Sequence record: KY608965.1
Reading direction: 5' to 3' (one strand)
DNA: 64,000 nt
Origin: Escherichia phage phiEC1
The translations under genes were made by a program, and so were the position numbers. Below are positions 3,258 through 59,366 of the stretch, piece after piece (the first letter of the stretch is position 1; every line of letters starts with the position of its first letter). The notes beneath the pieces are model-generated. The model saw nothing but the letters and a program-made list of their open reading frames with translations, had not been told where the DNA came from and ran no database searches.

Positions 3258-3890
3258 TCACAGTACGTTAGTTACAAGGGTAATGATTTCTTTGGACACA
3301 TTAGGGAAGTCAATGTAAGTATATTTACCACCGATCTTAATCTTAACATCATTTTCAAGAGAAGTAAACAGCTTTGATTCAGTTTCTGACATGTTGTATG
3401 CAAAGATTCTAAGAGCGCCATCTCGTCGAATTTCGATCTGACGAATACCTAGAACTCGTTTAGCGAATCGAACTTCTAAGTTACTACGGTTTTCACCAAT
3501 TTCTTTAACTTCAACTTTATCTTTAATATTTTCAAAAACAAAGTTTGCTAATTCATGCATTTCAGGAGTAACTCCACGTGCTTTTCTGGTGTTACGTTTC
3601 TGAAGAAGTTCTGGAGCATTTTCTTGGGCAAAGAGGTCTGCAGCTTTTTGGATAATATCCATTGCTTCGCCTGTTGCTACAAGTCCATCACCGGATTTTT
3701 CGACTAAACCTTTCTTAATCAATACACCAATGTTAGAGTTAACAACTGATGCATTGTATTCTGCTTCCAGAGCTTCACGGACATTGGCAGCAGTGGTGAA
3801 GTTGTTCTTAATGATATAAACCATTATTGCAGCAGTTTTTTCATTCAGAGCGTTTTCAGAAGCTTTGATGATGTAAGTAACTTTAGACAT
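3258..3890 (-). CDS. motA: middle-transcription activator MotA
   Basis: 210 aa; N-terminus MSKVTYIIKAS... and central NSNIGVLIKKGLVEKSGDGL segment match T4 MotA as recalled; GGAG SD. Confidence 0.9.
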   Translation of the reverse strand: MSKVTYIIKASENALNEKTAAIMVYIIKNNFTTAANVREALEAEYNASVVNSNIGVLIKKGLVEKSGDGLVATGEAMDIIQKAADLFAQENAPELLQKRNTRKARGVTPEMHELANFVFENIKDKVEVKEIGENRSNLEVRFAKRVLGIRQIEIRRDGALRIFAYNMSETESKLFTSLENDVKIKIGGKYTYIDFPNVSKEIITLVTNVL

Positions 3891-3946
3891 TTTATTTCTC
3901 CAAATTAGTATTTGTTTTGATAGGTCTATAATATCATGTTTGAAGC
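3882..3946. repeat. 65-bp direct repeat, copy A (promoter + leader + start codon of motA)
   Basis: Identical to 4201-4265 on visual alignment. Confidence 0.8.
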
Positions 3947-3956
3947 AAAAGTAAAC
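3928..3956 (-). promoter_or_regulatory. early promoter (GTTTAC N17 TATTAT) for motA
   Basis: Minus-strand GTTTAC (3956-3951), 17-nt spacer, TATTAT; part of the dispersed taggtctataatatcat module. Confidence 0.6.
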
Positions 3957-3993
3957 TTTATTTTGGGCTCTTTTTCAAAAGCCCTGGTAAAAT

Positions 3994-4209
3994 TTACAAA
4001 CTCATTTCTTTAATAAGGCCAATAAGTTTTGCCTTTTTAGAACGAAGCTTTTCTAAATGATATCCGTTTGAACCGCGAACCACTAAAGAATTGATTTCAA
4101 CTTCTAAGAAATTTAATTCTTCAACAAGTGCTTTACGAGGAGCATTCATACCAGGTTTAACTTTACCGAAACGAGTAGTTGTGTTTTGGGTTAATTTCAT
4201 TTTAGACAT
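3994..4209 (-). CDS. hypothetical protein (71 aa; motA.1-position)
   Basis: Start set to ATG at 4209 (MSKMKL...), preceded by the same GGAG leader as motA; the longer track ORF to 4269 would read through the promoter. Confidence 0.55.
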   Translation of the reverse strand: MSKMKLTQNTTTRFGKVKPGMNAPRKALVEELNFLEVEINSLVVRGSNGYHLEKLRSKKAKLIGLIKEMSL

Positions 4210-4265
4210 TTTATTTCTCCAAATTAGTATTTGTTTTGATAGGTCTATAATATCATGTTTGAAGC
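4201..4265. repeat. 65-bp direct repeat, copy B
   Basis: Identical to 3882-3946. Confidence 0.8.
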
Positions 4266-4275
4266 GCATGTAAAC
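4247..4275 (-). promoter_or_regulatory. early promoter (GTTTAC N17 TATTAT) for the 3994-4209 gene
   Basis: Same module as at 3928-3956; -35 GTTTAC at 4275-4270. Confidence 0.6.
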
Positions 4276-4284
4276 TGTTTTGTG

Positions 4285-15737: not shown

Positions 15738-15964
15738 TAGTAAGTTTCCTTCCAATAAGTTGTACCATTTTCAGTGATTTCACGGAAGATACCATAGATA
15801 GGCATTTCATCACCGAGTTTTTCGTAAACGTAAACCACTTCGGTGTAGCATAAAAATTCGGTCCAGCTTTTCTGTACAACAACTAAATCAGGATTAAACA
15901 GAACATCTTCAAACTCATCGATGTTTGAATCAGTAGTTACGTTTTTAATGATTTGACGTTTCAT
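15737..15964 (-). CDS. hypothetical protein (75 aa)
   Basis: Start set to ATG at 15964 (MKRQII...) with AGAGGAG SD; the longer track ORF would run through the promoter hairpin. Confidence 0.5.
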
Positions 15965-15992
15965 AATATTCTCCTCTTGTTTTGATAGGTCT

Positions 15993-16022
15993 ATAGTATC
16001 ATAGACCATAGTTGTTGTACAT
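15993..16022 (-). promoter_or_regulatory. early-type promoter (-10 TACTAT in loop of GGTCTAT/ATAGACC hairpin)
   Basis: Inverted repeat 15988-16007; -35-like ATGTAC. Confidence 0.4.
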
Positions 16023-16546
16023 CATTTTAGCAAAATAAAATCAACTTGTTCTGCCAATGAACGTCTAAACATTAATTGACAACTTCCGAGGATGAAATCA
16101 GGTGCTTCATAGACCGCGATGTAGTATCCTTTAGCTTTCAAGAGTTCAACATCCACCTGGTCATCAAACCATGCATAAACCGCGTCAACGCTTTCAAATC
16201 CAAAATAGAACCCTTGAGCCCAATCTTTGTTCAATTCAAATGTGTGCTCAATTCTATGGTATCTTAAGATATTTTGTTCAAGGAGTTTGTCTTCATTTAC
16301 TGTAGGACGATTAGGGACATTATAGTTGTCGCCGTGATGGTAGAAGTTACCTGAGATTATTCCATGTTTATCAAGGAACTCCCATGTTTCTTCAGAGTTG
16401 TCAGTGCCAGACCAACCGTAAGGTGAGCGAGGTTCTTTATTCCAAGAGGTTTCCCAAATTCTGACGGCTTTACCGTCTTCGATAACAATTCCTGGTAATG
16501 ATTCACGTTGAGTACAAAAACTACGTTCTACGCGATAAACTAACAT
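16022..16546 (-). CDS. hypothetical protein (174 aa)
   Basis: ATG start with AGAGGAG SD. Confidence 0.55.
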   Translation of the reverse strand: MLVYRVERSFCTQRESLPGIVIEDGKAVRIWETSWNKEPRSPYGWSGTDNSEETWEFLDKHGIISGNFYHHGDNYNVPNRPTVNEDKLLEQNILRYHRIEHTFELNKDWAQGFYFGFESVDAVYAWFDDQVDVELLKAKGYYIAVYEAPDFILGSCQLMFRRSLAEQVDFILLK

Positions 16547-16572
16547 ATTATTCTCCTCTGGTTGATATGGTT

Positions 16573-16601
16573 ATAATATCAAAACCAGAGGAGAAGTAAA
16601 C
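16573..16601 (-). promoter_or_regulatory. early promoter (GTTTAC N17 TATTAT) with -10 in loop of SD-sequestering inverted repeat
   Basis: Arms CTCCTCTGGTT/AACCAGAGGAG (16556-16592); the 3' arm contains the GAGGAG SD of the 16022-16546 gene. Confidence 0.55.
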
Positions 16602-21990: not shown

Positions 21991-22572
21991 CTAAAAATTC
22001 AACATTTTTAAATGAATGATTTTGTATAGTCGAGATAAAGGGTCATATTCTAAGTCTTCAATTTCCACAATCTCAAATCTAGAGATACCTGAGACCATGT
22101 ACTCTTGTTCAGATTCAATCATATCTAGGACATCAACACGCGTTTCTTCCATAACATGCTTAGGATTCTTTCCGGCAAGTACAATGTTAACCATGTTTTG
22201 GTAGTAATCAAAAATGAATGGAGCATTCCTGAGACTAAGAATAGTGTACGTCTGATATTCCCATCTCCCAGAGAATTGACGAGCTGTACCGAAATCAGTT
22301 GTGAACGATGTTACTCGTCCGGGAGACCAATGACATCCAACAGAAAGAAGGGAAAGACGTTCTACTTCTTCTGGAGTTACACCACGGTAGAGTTCTACTG
22401 GTACTGTAGAAGTCATATGCTTACGAACAAGACGGTCTAATTCATAGTGGAAATCCGGGTCTTCCTTAGAATCGGTGCAAGCCCAGAGAATGTTTTGTTC
22501 TTGGCGGGTGAATTTGCTATCAATAAGATTTGTTAGGTATTCGCGTTCTTGAAGTTCAGATTGACATGTCAT
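21991..22572 (-). CDS. modB: ADP-ribosyltransferase ModB-like
   Basis: 193 aa with YRGV, TSFTT and EQEYMV motifs; paralogue of the preceding gene. Confidence 0.6.
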   Translation of the reverse strand: MTCQSELQEREYLTNLIDSKFTRQEQNILWACTDSKEDPDFHYELDRLVRKHMTSTVPVELYRGVTPEEVERLSLLSVGCHWSPGRVTSFTTDFGTARQFSGRWEYQTYTILSLRNAPFIFDYYQNMVNIVLAGKNPKHVMEETRVDVLDMIESEQEYMVSGISRFEIVEIEDLEYDPLSRLYKIIHLKMLNF

Positions 22573-22599
22573 GATAGACCTCCATTTAAAGATAAGCCT

Positions 22600-22628
22600 A
22601 TCATAACACGAGAGGAGGGAATGTAAAC
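22600..22628 (-). promoter_or_regulatory. early promoter (GTTTAC N17 TATGAT) for modB
   Basis: Spacer carries CCCTCCTC, complementary to the downstream GGAGG SD. Confidence 0.5.
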
Positions 22629-24382: not shown

Positions 24383-24604
24383 TTAACTCCTTTGTTGTTT
24401 AATTACAGGTTTATTTATAATGAATTCCTGTGGAACAGTAAAATATCCGAATTTAGCTAATACAACAACATCATTAATGATTACTGGAGAATAATCATCT
24501 GAGTTATTAAATTTCCAATGAAGCCTGTCATCATATCCATCAGAACCAAATGCTCGAGTAGCCGGTCTCCCGGCTTTTTGCCATGCGTAGAAATCAAATT
24601 TCAC
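24383..24604 (-). CDS. questionable ORF (73 aa, GTG start only)
   Basis: No ATG in frame and no clear SD; contains the soc late promoter. Confidence 0.25.
   Translation of the reverse strand: MKFDFYAWQKAGRPATRAFGSDGYDDRLHWKFNNSDDYSPVIINDVVVLAKFGYFTVPQEFIINKPVIKQQRS
24412..24419 (-). promoter_or_regulatory. late promoter box TATAAATA for soc
   Basis: Plus-strand tatttata gives minus-strand TATAAATA about 30 nt upstream of the soc ATG. Confidence 0.55.
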
Positions 24605-24626
24605 TTTGAATGCTCTATAATTAATT

Positions 24627-24794
24627 TTAAAGCTTCTTCACTGACAAAATTTCGTCAGGACCTTCTATAACTTCAACCATACGAAGTTGATTAGTTAAGA
24701 GCTCACACACGAGCTCTTTGTTATAATCTTTAAATAGCTGGTCAATACGTTTCTTATGGGCTTTCTTGAGCTGGCGTTTATTTAAACGAGCCAT
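24627..24794 (-). CDS. hypothetical basic protein (55 aa)
   Basis: ATG overlapping the gene 56 stop as TAATG; below track cutoff. Confidence 0.35.
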   Translation of the reverse strand: MARLNKRQLKKAHKKRIDQLFKDYNKELVCELLTNQLRMVEVIEGPDEILSVKKL

Positions 24795-29293: not shown

Positions 29294-29607
29294 ATTTCCT
29301 CGCAAAATGCCCATTCAGCGTGATAAACTGTAGCACCTTTAGTATCATTCATTTGAACTACGTCTACCGGAGAAATTACTCGATAGAGACGTGGTTCACC
29401 TCCATAAGAGCGTGCTGCTCGTCCTGCATAAATCTTTGCTAAACCGATATCTTCAGTAAAGAATACACGATTCAAGTTTTTCTTACGTCCAGTTTCAGAC
29501 AGAACTCCTGTTTCCTCAGGAGGACAAAGCATGTTTTCGATGTTAGCTGAACTACTTGAACCGTGATAAAAAATCTTAAATTCTTCTTTACAATCGATGG
29601 TTTTCAT
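29290..29607 (-). CDS. hypothetical protein (105 aa)
   Basis: ATG start with GGAGAA SD. Confidence 0.5.
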   Translation of the reverse strand: MKTIDCKEEFKIFYHGSSSSANIENMLCPPEETGVLSETGRKKNLNRVFFTEDIGLAKIYAGRAARSYGGEPRLYRVISPVDVVQMNDTKGATVYHAEWAFCEEI

Positions 29608-29633
29608 TTTGTTCTCCAGTAGTTGATAGGTCT

Positions 29634-29662
29634 ATAATAACACAACTACTGGAGAAGTAAAC
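29634..29662 (-). promoter_or_regulatory. early promoter (GTTTAC N17 TATTAT) with -10 in loop of 10-bp SD-sequestering inverted repeat
   Basis: Arms CCAGTAGTTG/CAACTACTGG (29617-29652); the 3' arm overlaps the SD of the 29290-29607 gene. Confidence 0.55.
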
Positions 29663-30037
29663 TTAAAAACGTAATTTAGATATATCTGCGTTGATTTCGT
29701 TTTGGTTTGCGTCGTATGCAATTAAACGAACCGCTTTAGATGGGTCATTCAATGCATAGAAATGATGGAACATTGCTCGAACGATATCGCCATTTACGAG
29801 TTCTACCTGGATAGGAGAACCTTTTTCGAGTTGGAAATGTTCATAAGCTTTGATGGTTCGCAGATAATCAAGTTTTTGATTTCCGGCTCCAACGATTTGT
29901 ACGATACGTTTGCCCATGTTTTCCATACGAGATACAATAGATTTAGGAGCAAGAATAACGTAGGTTGCCAGCGGAGAAACTACTTCAACAGTTGTGTTTT
30001 CGGTGATTGCAGTAAAAATTGCTTGAGACATATTCAT
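29663..30037 (-). CDS. hypothetical protein (124 aa)
   Basis: ATG with AGAGGAAAA SD. Confidence 0.5.
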   Translation of the reverse strand: MNMSQAIFTAITENTTVEVVSPLATYVILAPKSIVSRMENMGKRIVQIVGAGNQKLDYLRTIKAYEHFQLEKGSPIQVELVNGDIVRAMFHHFYALNDPSKAVRLIAYDANQNEINADISKLRF

Positions 30038-30103
30038 AATGTTTTCCTCTTGGTTGGTGTAAGTACATCATATCATGCCTAGAGGAAGATGTAAACCCCG
30101 AAA

Positions 30104-45939: not shown

Positions 45940-47628
45940 TTATGAAACAGTCATCACAGTAAATCGTCCAACTTTGCTCATTTGAAGATGTTGTCCATAA
46001 GCTTGTGGGTCATGGTCTCTGTGACTAATTATAAACACGTTTGCATCGGTTAGAGAGTTAAGAATTGTTGAAATAGCTTTAATACCTTCAGAATCAGTCG
46101 CGGAATCCATGACTTCGTCCATAATTAATGTATTGATTCTAACACCAGAGATCTTTTCAGCAATATCTCGCCATGTAAACAACAATGCGATATCGATACG
46201 TGCCTTTTCACCTTGACTAAATGAAGCATAACTAAAATCTTCACGACCACGTGATTTTATAGATTCATTGAATTCTTCGTCAATAGAAAACACATAATCA
46301 GCTTCCATGATTTTAAGGTAATGGTTAATCTGCTTGTTGAACAGAGGCACATATTTTTTAATGATAGCACCTTTAATACCAGAATCTTTTAACATATCTG
46401 TTATAATACCACGATGGTATTTTTCAAGAACGATATCTGATTTTGTTTTAATGATTTTATCAAGTTCTTTTTGAAGCAAAGCTATCTCATCGGCATGGTC
46501 GATAAATTCCGCCGAGGCTTGTTCTATTGCAGCTTTAACTTTCTTAGCTTTATCAATAGTGGCAATCATTGCTTGTTTCTTAGTACGAATATCAGATGCA
46601 AGGTCCTGCTTAGTCTTAACATTAGCTCTATATTCGTCCACTAGGACACTCAGATTATCTCTGTGGCAGGTAAGTTGCTCGAATGAGTGATTACATTCAT
46701 GAAGCTTATCGGTAATCTTAGAGACAATAGGATCACCCTGGTGCAACTGTGATGCACAAGTAGGACATGTACCGCCATCATGATACATCTTAATAACTTT
46801 GTTATATGAGTCAATTTTAGATTTAATCAAGAATGCTTCTTGTCCTATCTTGTTGAATGCCTCAGTAGGGTCTTCGTCAAGAACGATATTAAGTAGACGC
46901 TCGTTAGCTTCTTCGATTTCTGCTTTTAATGAACGAGCTTCTTTAGCCAGGTCGTCATACATATTCTGTAGACGCGCTACATTATCACCAGATAATTTCT
47001 TTTGACGTTCGATATTCTCGTTATAAATCTTAATTTGTTGGATAATACCATCTTTCTTGGCATCGAGAACTTGCCCCTGGGAATTAAGTTCTCGAACTTG
47101 AGACTTATTGATTTTATCCATTTCAGCGAGTGTGCCAACTTCTAAAAGGTCTTCGACAAGTTTTCTACGAGCAGGGGTGCTAAGAGCCATGAAAGGGGTA
47201 TACCCTGCCGTCCCAAGCACAACGATTTGTTTAAAAGACGCGTATGACATTCCGATGCTACGTTCAAATTCTTCTTGGAAGTCACGACTGCTGGCAGATT
47301 CATCAAGACGAACACCGTCAACGGAGATTTCGAAAATATTGGGCTTTTGGCCACGTTTAATGAAGTATTTTTTACCATCGAATTCCATCCAAAGCTCAAC
47401 TAAGAGCTCTTTCTTGTTCGTGCTATTAATGATTTGTCCTTTCTTAACATCACGAAATGGTTTACCGAAAAGTCCGAAAGTAATGGCTTCTAACATCGTA
47501 GATTTACCACCGCCATTTTTACCTGTGATTAAGGTCTTTTGGACTTTATCTAATTGGATATCGATAAAATTTTGCCCAACAGACATTATATTTTTATAAC
47601 GAACACGATTTAATTTAAATGTTTTCAC
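45940..47628 (-). CDS. 46: recombination endonuclease subunit (SbcC/Rad50-like)
   Basis: 562 aa; Walker A GKNGGGKST, coiled-coil middle, CPTC zinc hook, signature/D-loop LIMDEV; start codon reads GTG preceded by GAGGAAAA. Confidence 0.9.
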   Translation of the reverse strand: MKTFKLNRVRYKNIMSVGQNFIDIQLDKVQKTLITGKNGGGKSTMLEAITFGLFGKPFRDVKKGQIINSTNKKELLVELWMEFDGKKYFIKRGQKPNIFEISVDGVRLDESASSRDFQEEFERSIGMSYASFKQIVVLGTAGYTPFMALSTPARRKLVEDLLEVGTLAEMDKINKSQVRELNSQGQVLDAKKDGIIQQIKIYNENIERQKKLSGDNVARLQNMYDDLAKEARSLKAEIEEANERLLNIVLDEDPTEAFNKIGQEAFLIKSKIDSYNKVIKMYHDGGTCPTCASQLHQGDPIVSKITDKLHECNHSFEQLTCHRDNLSVLVDEYRANVKTKQDLASDIRTKKQAMIATIDKAKKVKAAIEQASAEFIDHADEIALLQKELDKIIKTKSDIVLEKYHRGIITDMLKDSGIKGAIIKKYVPLFNKQINHYLKIMEADYVFSIDEEFNESIKSRGREDFSYASFSQGEKARIDIALLFTWRDIAEKISGVRINTLIMDEVMDSATDSEGIKAISTILNSLTDANVFIISHRDHDPQAYGQHLQMSKVGRFTVMTVS

Positions 47629-48475
47629 TTAAATTTTTCCTCATGAATTCAGAAACTAAAGCCTGTAAAGAACTTTGTATAGGATATCCTAAATTGACTA
47701 AATTTTTAGAAAAAGTCACATATTTAGGTTTGTTCATTTTAACCCATTCAACGTAAAGCATATCAAAATTTTCCCAATGATATCCTTTTCTTCTAGATTT
47801 CAAATGAGTGTCTCTAACTTTAGGATTTTTCCAACTGCGTGAAACTCCAGCCGATAATGATTCTCTATATTCGGCTGTTTTAGATATTTTACGACAAGCA
47901 TCCAAATGTTTTTGTTTATTAATAGGGTCACTAAACCACTTTTGGGTCATAATAGAGACGGTTTCTTTAAATTCCTTTGAACTTGTCATAATTCTGTGTT
48001 TCTTTAAATTTTCCGGATTTTTAAACCATGCTTTTAAAGCTTGACTAATCTTAATTCTATTATCCTGATTGGAATAGTATAATGTCATTTTTATAGAATT
48101 AACTTTACAAACATTTTCGAATTCTAAAGAATACGCCTCGGCTATATTATTTAGTTCATGCGTTGTACAATTTAAATTAAATCGCCCGGTATACATTCTT
48201 TGAAGCGCGTTAATCATCTTGTGGTTGCCAGTTTTTGCCAAAATGCTATGTGCAATAAAATGGTTATAATGACTTAAATGACACAAGTTCCATTTACATG
48301 TTTTAAAATCTGGAAAAATAGATTTTGGTAGTATATGGTGAACCTGAGTCAGTCCTTTTACTTTATTAGTGGAATTAGTTTTTATAAAGTTTAAATACTC
48401 ATCAAGTCCTTCCCACGAAGGGAAGGAGGTTTTAAGAATTTTATAAATTTGAGTTTCATAATCAGTCTTCGTCAT
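47615..48475 (-). CDS. free-standing HNH homing endonuclease with C-terminal repeated DNA-binding motifs (mobile element)
   Basis: Track start is TTG; ATG at 48475; HNH core VHHILPKSIFPDF...NLCHLSHYNHFIAH; three S...W.NP....KH repeats; overlaps gene 46 start and the upstream ORF by 14 nt each. Confidence 0.6.
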   Translation of the reverse strand: MTKTDYETQIYKILKTSFPSWEGLDEYLNFIKTNSTNKVKGLTQVHHILPKSIFPDFKTCKWNLCHLSHYNHFIAHSILAKTGNHKMINALQRMYTGRFNLNCTTHELNNIAEAYSLEFENVCKVNSIKMTLYYSNQDNRIKISQALKAWFKNPENLKKHRIMTSSKEFKETVSIMTQKWFSDPINKQKHLDACRKISKTAEYRESLSAGVSRSWKNPKVRDTHLKSRRKGYHWENFDMLYVEWVKMNKPKYVTFSKNLVNLGYPIQSSLQALVSEFMRKNLSENI

Positions 48476-53251: not shown

Positions 53252-53430
53252 GGCTTAATTTCCTTCGCAATTGAACAGAAGATACCACGGTCACAAAGCA
53301 TTTCACCAATTTCTGGATATTTGATTGAACGGTACCAAACATCCAGGCTTGAAACTCTGGTTATCTGTACTGCATTACCGTTGACAGAATAGTACTGGTC
53401 GACCTTAATTTCTTTATCTTCAATTGTCAT
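53248..53430 (-). CDS. hypothetical protein (60 aa)
   Basis: Start set to ATG at 53430 with AGAGGAAAA SD; SD lies in the 3' arm of the CCTCTATAG/CTATTGAGG inverted repeat. Confidence 0.4.
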   Translation of the reverse strand: MTIEDKEIKVDQYYSVNGNAVQITRVSSLDVWYRSIKYPEIGEMLCDRGIFCSIAKEIKP

Positions 53431-53595
53431 TTTATTTTCCTCTATAGTAGATGGTTTAATCTTAACACATCTATTGAGGATGTAAACTGTTTTATGAAAA
53501 TATTTTTGATTTGAGAGGGGCACAAGGAGATAGTGAAGTGAGGGTTCCAATAGATTATATTAGAAATGGGATAAAGAAGACCAGGCGGCACCTGG

Positions 53596-56819: not shown

Positions 56820-57289
56820 TTTAAACTCTTTCTAAGCTGCTTTTTGAATGAAGCTATTAATTGTGTTTTAGTATCAGATTCATTATATTCAAATCCTCTT
56901 TGAAGCATCTCGGTCATCATTTCCTCTTTACCTAGTCTTGAGAACTCTTTAGTTTTGTCTGGAACAAAATTAGGATGGATATTATTATCAGAATAATCTT
57001 GTTTCAAATAAGCAAGAAGAGCTTCAAGCCATTCGAGGTAATCAACGTTTTGACCTTTAAGACCAGAACGGTTGAACTTATGCTTCATTTGACCTTCTGC
57101 TGCATTGCACAGGTTACATAGTAAACCACGAACCTTACCAGCTTTTGGCCCGTTTAATTCGTGGTCGTGGTCAAGATGGTTACCTTGAACATCAGGGTCT
57201 AATTCACGGTGGCAAATAGGACACTTACCATTCTGTGCGTCATAAAATTTTTGTTTTTCTTCTTTGTATTTTGCGCCTGATAATAACAT
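56816..57289 (-). CDS. 49: endonuclease VII (Holliday junction resolvase)
   Basis: 157 aa; MLLSGAKYKEEKQKFYDAQNGKCPIC...HLDHDHELNGPKAGKVRGLLCNLCN matches T4 gp49 as recalled. Confidence 0.9.
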   Translation of the reverse strand: MLLSGAKYKEEKQKFYDAQNGKCPICHRELDPDVQGNHLDHDHELNGPKAGKVRGLLCNLCNAAEGQMKHKFNRSGLKGQNVDYLEWLEALLAYLKQDYSDNNIHPNFVPDKTKEFSRLGKEEMMTEMLQRGFEYNESDTKTQLIASFKKQLRKSLK

Positions 57290-57293
57290 GATA

Positions 57294-57317
57294 TACCCTT
57301 ACCTTAAATAGATAAGG
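57294..57317 (-). promoter_or_regulatory. SD-sequestering hairpin upstream of gene 49
   Basis: ACCCTTA/TAAGGGT inverted repeat; the 3' arm contains the AAGGG SD of gene 49. Confidence 0.35.
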
Positions 57318-57324
57318 GTATTTA

Positions 57325-57738
57325 TTAACTTAAACGTCTTTCTAAATATTCAATGTATTCTGCGGCTGCTTGCATCAGATTACCTTCATAGCCGTCGTTA
57401 TTTTCTTGTCCGGCTAATTTAGCTAATGCATAAGAAATTCGTTCACCTTCGAATTCGCCAAGTCCACCATCACAAACTACTTGGTCAATTTCTTCGAGTT
57501 CATCTATTGAATGGGATTCCCAGAAGCACCAAAGACAAGTATCACGGTCATAGATGCAAAGTTTCTCACCTGTGTTCAACATCACTTCGATAATGCCATG
57601 GTCGCCATAACCATCTTCGGTAGTAGTACCAATTACCTTGATGATTGTTCCTTTCTTTAATTCAGGAAACTTGTCTTGTAGTTCTTCGTCTTCTTTAACA
57701 ATCTTGAACCATTTACCGCGAGTTTCAGAAATATTCAT
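57325..57738 (-). CDS. hypothetical acidic protein (137 aa from internal ATG)
   Basis: Track ORF extends to 57876 but overlaps the upstream small gene; ATG at 57738 follows its stop. Confidence 0.4.
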   Translation of the reverse strand: MNISETRGKWFKIVKEDEELQDKFPELKKGTIIKVIGTTTEDGYGDHGIIEVMLNTGEKLCIYDRDTCLWCFWESHSIDELEEIDQVVCDGGLGEFEGERISYALAKLAGQENNDGYEGNLMQAAAEYIEYLERRLS

Positions 57739-59061: not shown

Positions 59062-59366
59062 TATAATGTTCTCTCAAATTTGTGGAAGCATTTACGGCAT
59101 TTCAATTTCAAGTTATCAGTGGTCCAGTTAACCAGTTGGACTTGGATAGTTCCACATTCCGGGCATGGATGTTTTGCTGCCGATTTGGCAGCATTTTCAC
59201 GTCGTTCAACCATTTTCATTATTTCGTTCCATGCCGGAGGAACGAACTCTTCTTCACCATGAATTTTATCTCGCTGAACAAATTCAATCTTTGAACTATC
59301 ATCAATAAACTTAACTAAGCCATGATTAGTGCTCATATCAATATCCTCTAGAAGACGTAGGTTCAT
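59061..59366 (-). CDS. zinc-ribbon protein (101 aa)
   Basis: CPECG...CRKC motif; ATG start. Confidence 0.5.
   Translation of the reverse strand: MNLRLLEDIDMSTNHGLVKFIDDSSKIEFVQRDKIHGEEEFVPPAWNEIMKMVERRENAAKSAAKHPCPECGTIQVQLVNWTTDNLKLKCRKCFHKFERTL

Follow-up and report, generated by a model that had tools for sequence, protein, structure and literature searches.

Hairpins spanning early promoters of a Mosigvirus and predicted to mask the Shine-Dalgarno sequence: a candidate early-gene version of a T4 late-gene device

Precedent for translation that depends on where a transcript begins comes from phage T4, in which e (lysozyme), soc, 49 and I-TevI are translated from promoter-proximal transcripts but not from long ones (PMC3014915). 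Gene 49 is listed among the cases of a sequestered ribosome-binding site (PMC3014915), and all known cases of a promoter within a hairpin concern late genes with late promoters (PMC2988022, PMC3014915). A second described system is the promoter-plus-stem-loop (PeSL) cassette, whose published stems are built of a G-run and a C-run or of AGNA/TCNT and lie within or overlapping the promoter (RB49) or upstream of it (PST/T4); these stem-loops have been read as terminators and recombination sites, with the Shine-Dalgarno sequence (SD) outside the stem and no pairing to it described (PMC2839356, PMC4122927). Here we describe, in a stretch of 64,000 nucleotides (nt) of Escherichia phage phiEC1 (KY608965.1; the window), inverted repeats that enclose or overlap the -10 element of early promoters and whose 3' arm covers the SD or AUG of the gene behind. 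A 1.8-kb probe around them was 98% identical to Mosigvirus genomes including FP43, SHSML-52-1 and LF82-4, and the window is the early region of a Mosigvirus, an RB69-like T-even phage. On evidence that is computational throughout, the repeats are best described as an early-gene version of the T4 late-gene device, conserved across many related phages. In the literature searched we met no account of early promoters that mask an SD through an anti-SD sequence encoded in their spacer or -10 element, although older subscription literature is not excluded.

Early promoters were sought as GTTTAC (at most one mismatch), a spacer of 16-19 nt and a TATAAT-like hexamer followed by an SD and an open reading frame (ORF), which gave 21-22 promoters on the minus strand of the window. 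That strand carries nearly all of the genes and every module, arm and hairpin noted here, the coordinates of modules and arms (Table 1) having been verified base by base. For each promoter we calculated the energy needed to open the region from SD to AUG in a read-through context (-120 to +30) and subtracted from it the energy for the locally initiated RNA (ddG of opening). Four promoters lead the 22, namely those of the genes starting at 16546 (15.3 kcal/mol), 22572 (13.9), 29607 (12.7) and 53430 (7.4); the next highest values are 5.4, 4.8, 3.7 and 3.2, and the median is about 1 kcal/mol. At masked sites opening is predicted to cost 8-19 kcal/mol in the long context, and predicted local leaders fold with 0 to -3 kcal/mol as against -12 to -25 for full modules. 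We refer to stems that mask the SD as class A and to stems across the -10 that leave the SD free as class B. A preliminary description of this DNA had cited five inverted repeats, all of which exist, and had held that the arrangement occurs systematically at early promoters. The latter goes too far, as motif search and folding together found strong masking at four promoters only, with a weaker fifth at 30037; that is, the SD is masked in 4-5 of 22 modules, or about 20% of early promoters.

The highest opening cost is predicted at 16546, where the 174-amino-acid (aa) product is 34% identical to T4 MotB.2 (E 3e-16) and is labelled MotB.2 in several Mosigvirus records. Besides an inner helix, its arms make 13 perfect pairs (minimum free energy (MFE) -23.9 kcal/mol, z -7.3), the arm duplex is worth -22.5 kcal/mol compared with -8.5 +/- 2.5 for shuffled spacers (p 0.002), and opening SD to AUG would take 16.8 kcal/mol when the RNA is read-through and 1.5 when it starts locally. 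The module at 29607 is much alike, with 14 perfect pairs (-21.7 kcal/mol, z -5.5), an arm duplex of -22.9 kcal/mol (p 0.002 against shuffled spacers) and opening energies of 14.7 and 2.0 kcal/mol; its 105-aa protein belongs to PHROG 2110, of unknown function. As a separate observation, the leader and SD of the promoter at 63032-62976 match those of this site, but the spacer there pairs with AGACCU instead of the SD, which makes the two a natural contrast pair. At 53430 the helix is weaker and in two parts, TCCTC/GAGGA and TAGATG/CATCTA (MFE -12 kcal/mol, z -2.7; duplex -12.3 kcal/mol, p 0.007). One relative (L036) carries a compensatory double change from G-C to A-U in this stem and another the A.C intermediate, and the Dhakavirus orthologue retains an 8-bp pairing of TCTCCTCA with TGAGGAGA. 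The case at 30037, which the preliminary description lacked, has a comparable duplex (-12.8 kcal/mol, p 0.007-0.01), yet its ddG of opening is only 3.2 kcal/mol and the z of the whole module -1.3.

The anti-SD sequence had been placed in or near the promoter spacer, and this is where we find it at 16546, 29607 and 53430. At 22572, whose 193-aa product is 38% identical to T4 ModB (E 4e-28), the main partner is the -10 region instead of the tract in the spacer, and a 16-bp stem dominates the fold (MFE -22.5 kcal/mol, z -4.8). A pairing of CCTCC with GGAGG does exist there, but as the main structure it was rejected, the spacer-only complementarity being not significant (p 0.24).

Table 1. Positions of promoter modules, hairpin arms and repeat copies in the window
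Site	Feature	Coordinates	Strand	Sequence or remark
16546 (site 1)	Early promoter module of MotB.2-like gene, -35 to ATG	16544..16601	minus	GTTTAC-N17-TATTAT
16546	-35	16601-16596	minus	GTTTAC
16546	-10	16578-16573	minus	TATTAT
16546	ATG	16546-16544	minus	
16546	5' arm/anti-SD	16583..16595	minus	TTCTCCTCTGGTT; inside 17-nt spacer; 13/13 complementary to 16563-16551
16546	3' arm	16551..16563	minus	AACCAGAGGAGAA; contains SD (AGGAG)
29607 (site 2)	Early promoter module of 105-aa ORFan upstream of dmd	29605..29662	minus	-35 29662-29657; -10 29639-29634; ATG 29607-29605
29607	5' arm/anti-SD	29643..29656	minus	TTCTCCAGTAGTTG; inside spacer; 14/14 complementary to 29625-29612
29607	3' arm	29612..29625	minus	CAACTACTGGAGAA; carries SD (GGAG)
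53430 (site 3)	Early promoter module of 60-aa ORFan	53428..53487	minus	-35 53487-53482; -10 TAAGAT 53464-53459
53430	5' arm	53480-53468	minus	TCCTCAATAGATG
53430	3' arm	53453-53438	minus	CATCTACTATAGAGGA
22572 (site 4)	Early promoter module of ModB-like ADP-ribosyltransferase gene	22565..22628	minus	-35 22628-22623; -10 TATGAT 22605-22600
22572	CT-rich tract	22619-22614	minus	CCCTCC
22572	5' arm	22610-22595	minus	CGUGUUAUGAUAGGCU; overlaps -10
22572	3' arm	22580-22565	minus	GGUCUAUCAUGACAUG; covers 3' part of SD and AUG 22572-22570
30037	Early promoter module of 124-aa ORFan downstream of gene 41	30035..30096	minus	
30037	5' arm	30088-30078	minus	CTTCCTCTAGG
30037	3' arm	30053-30044	minus	CCAAGAGGAA
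Gene 49	Hairpin of endonuclease VII gene	57287..57326	minus	late-promoter-like AATAAATA 57326-57319
Gene 49	5' arm	57321-57311	minus	ATACCCTTATC
Gene 49	3' arm	57303-57293	minus	GGTAAGGGTAT
Class B	Promoter hairpins	6844-6786, 7356-7300, 28350-28291, 52360-52299, 52785-52694, 52060-51993, 63032-62976	minus	
Repeat motif	Copies of -10 and leader motif	3917, 4236, 15982, 21211, 28310, 29623, 51300, 62993	minus	TATNATAGACCTATCAA

The inverted repeats are real and chance is excluded as their source. When each spacer was shuffled 300-500 times and the spacer:leader duplex energies compared, the promoters of 16546, 29607, 30037 and 53430 reached p 0.002-0.01 with the 3' arm on the SD, and four such cases among 22 promoters have a binomial probability of about 7e-5. 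For each of the 112 minus-strand gene starts we also took the best duplex that the SD region can form with the preceding 50 nt and ordered the starts by it; the five sites of the preliminary description take ranks 1, 2, 3, 4 and 9, and 30037 takes rank 5. Duplexes with a free energy (dG) of -11 or below occur at 5 of 21 promoter-bearing starts vs 3 of 91 others (Fisher p 0.006), and anti-SD 4-mers are present in 5/21 spacers against a background of 7.5-8.4%. More broadly, a stem that is non-random or strong spans the -10 in about 12 of the 22 modules, and about nine promoters have no notable stem. Over all 42 modules the sense strand folds more stably than the antisense strand (Wilcoxon p 0.019), being favored by G.U pairs; in the 13 significant hairpins taken alone the difference is not significant (p 0.11).

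Masking recurs at the same genes in relatives. The same promoter and ddG scan was applied to T4 (26 kb) and to a Dhakavirus (40 kb), and the orthology of motB.2 and modB across these and the window was confirmed. In T4, modB (10.4 kcal/mol) and motB.2 (7.6) stand apart from other promoters (at most 1.2), and in the Dhakavirus the values are 13.5 for modB, 13.3 for motB.2 and at most 6.6 elsewhere. The motB.2 arms themselves differ, reading UUCUCCUCUGGUU/AACCAGAGGAGAA in the window, UUCUCCUCAUG/CAUGAGGAGAA in the Dhakavirus and, with G.U pairs, UUCCUCGGUUAGUUGUGG/CCAUAGCUACUGAGGA in T4, where the sense strand is predicted to fold with -23.7 and the antisense strand with -14.5 kcal/mol. In the orthologue of relative L019 the SD GGAGGA is paired with UCCUC instead of UCUCC, and a Klebsiella phage module combines UUUCCUCGA/UUGAGGAGA with GGGUU/AACCC. 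That masking is kept at orthologous genes with different arm sequences argues for selection on pairing in read-through RNA.

The modB gene was followed through nine genera or genus-level lineages, six of them (Moonvirus, Marfavirus, Winklervirus, Karamvirus, Jiaodavirus and Gaprivervirus) added to the three above. In the six, the -10 region and the SD..AUG region form a stem of 10-19 pairs (z -1.7 to -8.9), and all nine have a ddG of opening of 12-20 kcal/mol. For each of the -10 variants TATGAT, TAGTAT, TATAGT and CATAAT, the bases that separate SD from AUG provide a match, and the sense fold is more stable than the antisense fold in 8/9 lineages. A CT-rich tract opens every modB spacer, right after the -35, in the nine genera (window 22622-22606; L028 at about 13180-13163; L043; L055-L060); these tracts, AUCCUCCUCUC, AUCUCCUCCC and UUACUCCCCUCC among others, constitute a second potential anti-SD sequence whose redundancy is unexplained.

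One site of the preliminary description falls outside the early-promoter class. It had listed 57294-57317 as an early module, and an early promoter sought there was absent; the gene is gene 49, its protein carrying the endonuclease VII domains PF02945 and PF09124 (Pfam), and the promoter in the hairpin is late-promoter-like. This is the known T4 late-gene case in a direct orthologue (duplex -15.0 kcal/mol, rank 3/112 gene starts). A soc-like gene at 24419-24380 (minus strand) has an exact late promoter, TATAAATA, and, unlike T4 soc, no SD-masking hairpin is predicted there (SD pairing probability 0.18).

From the sequences, their non-random complementarity, the predicted difference in folding and its conservation with changed sequence, we infer start sites, read-through RNA, a block to translation and a biological purpose along the following lines. 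At a subset of sigma-70-type early promoters the DNA just upstream of the start would serve twice, since the -35/-10 spacer, or the -10 hexamer and its flank, is also the reverse complement of the SD, and sometimes of the AUG, some 25-30 nt downstream. RNA started locally would begin some 7 nt past the -10. Such RNA cannot contain the 5' arm, which sits in the spacer or overlaps the -10 of these predicted promoters; the expectation that local transcripts leave the SD free thus follows from the geometry of the arms, and the local leaders are indeed predicted to be open and unstructured. RNA arriving from any upstream promoter would carry both arms, form a hairpin of 10-16 bp once the SD emerges, bury the SD and exclude the 30S subunit. 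Stems this strong at the SD lower initiation by orders of magnitude. The same logic cuts T4 lysozyme translation 100-fold from long transcripts (PMC3014915). Read-through into the modules at 16601 and 29662 is plausible, as a scan found no intrinsic terminator between either of them and its nearest upstream promoters. With the stops of upstream ORFs 6-16 nt short of the 5' arms, ribosomes that terminate there should leave the stems closed.

We favor the possibility that translation is licensed in this way by the promoter of origin, which we consider probable if well short of certain. The MotB.2-like and ModB-like proteins and those of two or three ORFans would then be made only while their own early promoters fire and be restricted to an immediate-early burst, synthesis ending when early promoters shut off despite read-through and middle-mode transcription across these genes. 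Rho-dependent polarity is known from early transcription units of T4 (PMC2988021), and untranslated read-through RNA might be open to Rho-dependent termination, in which case the element could also insulate neighbouring early units. A wider form of the proposal, which we put forward only tentatively, is a conserved T-even "promoter-of-origin licence", above all at modB and motB.2, under which self-initiated mRNA alone would be translated and the element would time shut-off, act as a factor-dependent insulator and account for part of the "terminator" activity of PeSLs.

Several observations weigh against this proposal: (i) the inner half of the 16546 stem has uncompensated single-nucleotide polymorphisms within Mosigvirus, giving a C.A mismatch in three phages and U.C in one, and only an 8-bp core, UUCUCCUC/GAGGAGAA, is invariant; (ii) some orthologues (L016, L017 and L040) use another promoter module, free of anti-SD sequence, in which the -35 lies in the loop of a GGGG-GTGTAC-CCCC-TTTTT terminator; (iii) RNAalifold on an 11-sequence motB.2 alignment found double changes in 2/17 pairs, with a covariation term of +0.14; (iv) a permutation of cognate against non-cognate arms gave p 5e-5 but is biased, because the modules were chosen for their pairing, and was set aside; (v) both perfect stems of the window are Watson-Crick palindromes and hence strand-symmetric, so alone they cannot separate a role in RNA from one in DNA; and (vi) class B stems leave the SD free, so that SD masking cannot explain all promoter hairpins and a general role is possible. 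With regard to the third point, column-based covariation is weak or unusable because stem registers shift between genera, and per-sequence folds and opening energies were used in its place.

Given class B, the main alternative remains that the stem-loops act on read-through RNA in the generic PeSL sense, as attenuators or terminators, as processing sites or as protection for the 3' end of the upstream cistron, the overlap with the SD being incidental to very short leaders. Class B hairpins occur at about seven promoters, at least as commonly as class A, with the 5' arm in the same position in the -35/-10 spacer, the 3' arm right after or overlapping the -10, and the loop holding the -10. Several match the SD-masking stems in non-randomness (p 0.003-0.05), the sense-strand bias holds for them too, and the T4 dmd and motB promoters are of this form. 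Terminator-like activity was measured for an RB49 PeSL stem-loop (Arbiol et al., PMC2839356), and the record of Citrobacter phage Moon labels the modB hairpin a terminator. We nevertheless regard a generic role as an unlikely explanation of class A. Our reasoning is that: (i) no U-tract follows any class A stem, the 3' arms being followed by UAAUAUG, CAAAAUG or AAAUAAAAUG, and the terminator scan has no hit at these sites, on which grounds an intrinsic (Rho-independent) terminator was rejected; (ii) pairing to the SD or AUG is conserved across genera while the rest of the stem, its register and the loop size change; (iii) loops of 17-19 nt are a poor design for generic stabilization; and (iv) the four sites are sharp outliers in SD-opening energy and not the tail of a continuum.

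It is improbable, we believe, that the repeats are a feature of DNA without RNA function, that is, a by-product or substrate of cassette recombination through cruciforms, hairpins or templated correction of quasi-palindromes. The modules do belong to a dispersed family. The -10 and leader motif TATNATAGACCTATCAA is present in 8 copies, with 0.04 expected, and an 84-nt direct repeat (3882-3965 and 4201-4284, 93% identical) takes in an early promoter with its leader and three initial codons (ATGTCTAAA), one copy preceding motA and the other a 71-aa ORF (3994-4209). Phage phi25-307 lacks this ORF between gene 52 and motA, which looks like a cassette insertion or deletion. Phages ST2 and phi25-307 are without the MotB.2-like gene (window 15964-16601 against 20040-20150 of L003, which is ST2, and 11560-11650 of L004, which is phi25-307) and have a chimeric promoter, the 5' half from the 16601 module and the 3' half from that of cef, with a crossover near the -10; its anti-SD sequence UUCUCCUCU still pairs with the cef SD AGAGGAGAA. 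That the two strongest stems of the window are perfect palindromes also accords with an origin in DNA. Against such an origin, many stems lose much of their stability on the opposite strand because of their G.U pairs, the same two genes keep their masking in nine genera despite turnover of sequence and register, and loops of 17-19 nt disfavor cruciform extrusion. Arm sequences differ between modules, which leaves no common protein-binding site, and a common protein operator was rejected for this reason.

Translational coupling, in which ribosomes finishing the upstream ORF open the hairpin so that the downstream gene is translated only with the upstream one, is very unlikely even though upstream ORFs end immediately before each promoter (with a stop 6 nt from the 5' arm at 29662), since a terminating ribosome, judged by its footprint, would open at most 3-4 of 14 pairs and the stop-to-start distance of 55-60 nt is long for re-initiation.

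Further promoter features were seen in the window. UUCG stem-loops stand just before an early -35 at 24136-24071 and 30120-30067 (minus strand), which is the PST/T4-type PeSL arrangement; AAGGAAUCC-UUCG-GGAUUCCUU is followed by a U run and is terminator-like, and GGAGAC-UUCG-GUCUCC is followed by a short U stretch only and was not called by the terminator scan. Upstream of gene 55 (51345-51281, minus strand) an 8-bp inverted repeat, ATAGGTCT...AGACCTAT, holds TATAAT in a 19-nt loop with a MotA-box-like TGCTTTAA upstream, and is possibly a promoter of the middle type that shares the hairpin arrangement. A perfect GTTTAC-N18-TATAAT promoter at 59394-59334 (minus strand), within the end of the preceding ORF, leads to an ATG at 59336 that has a good SD; relatives are annotated with a start 30 nt farther upstream (59366), and the downstream ATG may be the true one.

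By comparison with the annotated relative LF82-4, the gene order is asiA-motA-52-rIIB/A-39-cef-motB-dexA-dda-srd-modA/B-mrh-56-61-sp-imm-dmd-41-40-uvsX ... 43-45-46-47-55-nrdG/D-49-pin-nrdC. Two small ORFs between the soc-like gene and gene 56 (24383-24794) are extra relative to LF82-4, as is a 286-aa ORF between genes 46 and 47 (47615-48475), where LF82-4 has a small ORF, plus an HNH endonuclease after gene 47. Rfam 15 gave no match at gathering score anywhere in the window.

If licensing by the promoter of origin is correct, the early-to-middle switch, for which T4-type phages are a textbook system, would gain a cis-acting translational layer. Synthesis of proteins such as ModB would be confined to the time when their own promoters fire, whatever later transcription crosses the genes, and the co-variation of the modB -10 hexamer with the SD-to-AUG spacer across nine genera would be explained. 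Some PeSL cassettes would be translational gates rather than terminators, and synthetic circuits could borrow the arrangement as a compact part, namely a promoter whose own transcript is the only one licensed for translation. The proposal can be tested directly in T4, where motB.2 and modB both carry the feature.

With regard to known systems, a link between the modules and PeSL-type cassettes is reasonable. Like the PeSLs of RB49/phi1, PST/T4 and nt-1/KVP40, the modules have a strong sigma-70-like early promoter, an A/T-rich upstream region, a stem-loop within, overlapping or adjacent to the promoter, and an SD and ATG at the 3' end, the MotB.2-like module (CATAAAGTTGTTTAC...TATTAT...GAGGAGAATAATATG) being an example; they also share with PeSLs many dispersed copies and ties to ORFans and to indels and gene swaps between close relatives (PMC2839356, PMC4122927). 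The assignment to PeSLs made in the preliminary description is thus borne out by the dispersed repeats, deletions and chimeras, but not by the stems, for published PeSL stem-loops do not pair with the SD, whereas class A stems lack a U-tract and have the SD as their 3' arm.

A functional parallel may be drawn with the RegB endoribonuclease, which cuts GGAG in T4 early SDs and from which secondary structure protects GGAG (PMC3014915). Both RegB and, as predicted, the hairpins act post-transcriptionally on the SD so that immediate-early proteins are made in a short burst only; RegB, an enzyme, does so in trans on open local mRNA, whereas the hairpin would act in cis on read-through RNA, and an interplay between the two is possible. 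The closest likeness is to T4 e, soc, 49 and I-TevI, with which the modules share an SD and/or AUG in the 3' arm and a 5' arm upstream of the start of a nearby promoter (a predicted start in our case). Those are late genes with late promoters (TATAAATA), whereas the promoters at 16601, 29662, 53487, 22628 and 30096 are sigma-70 early promoters of the form GTTTAC-N17/18-TAnnAT, whose -35/-10 spacer or -10 element contains the 5' arm. The timing would also be reversed: in the T4 late cases the hairpin stops early translation of late genes, whereas here it would stop later translation of immediate-early genes.

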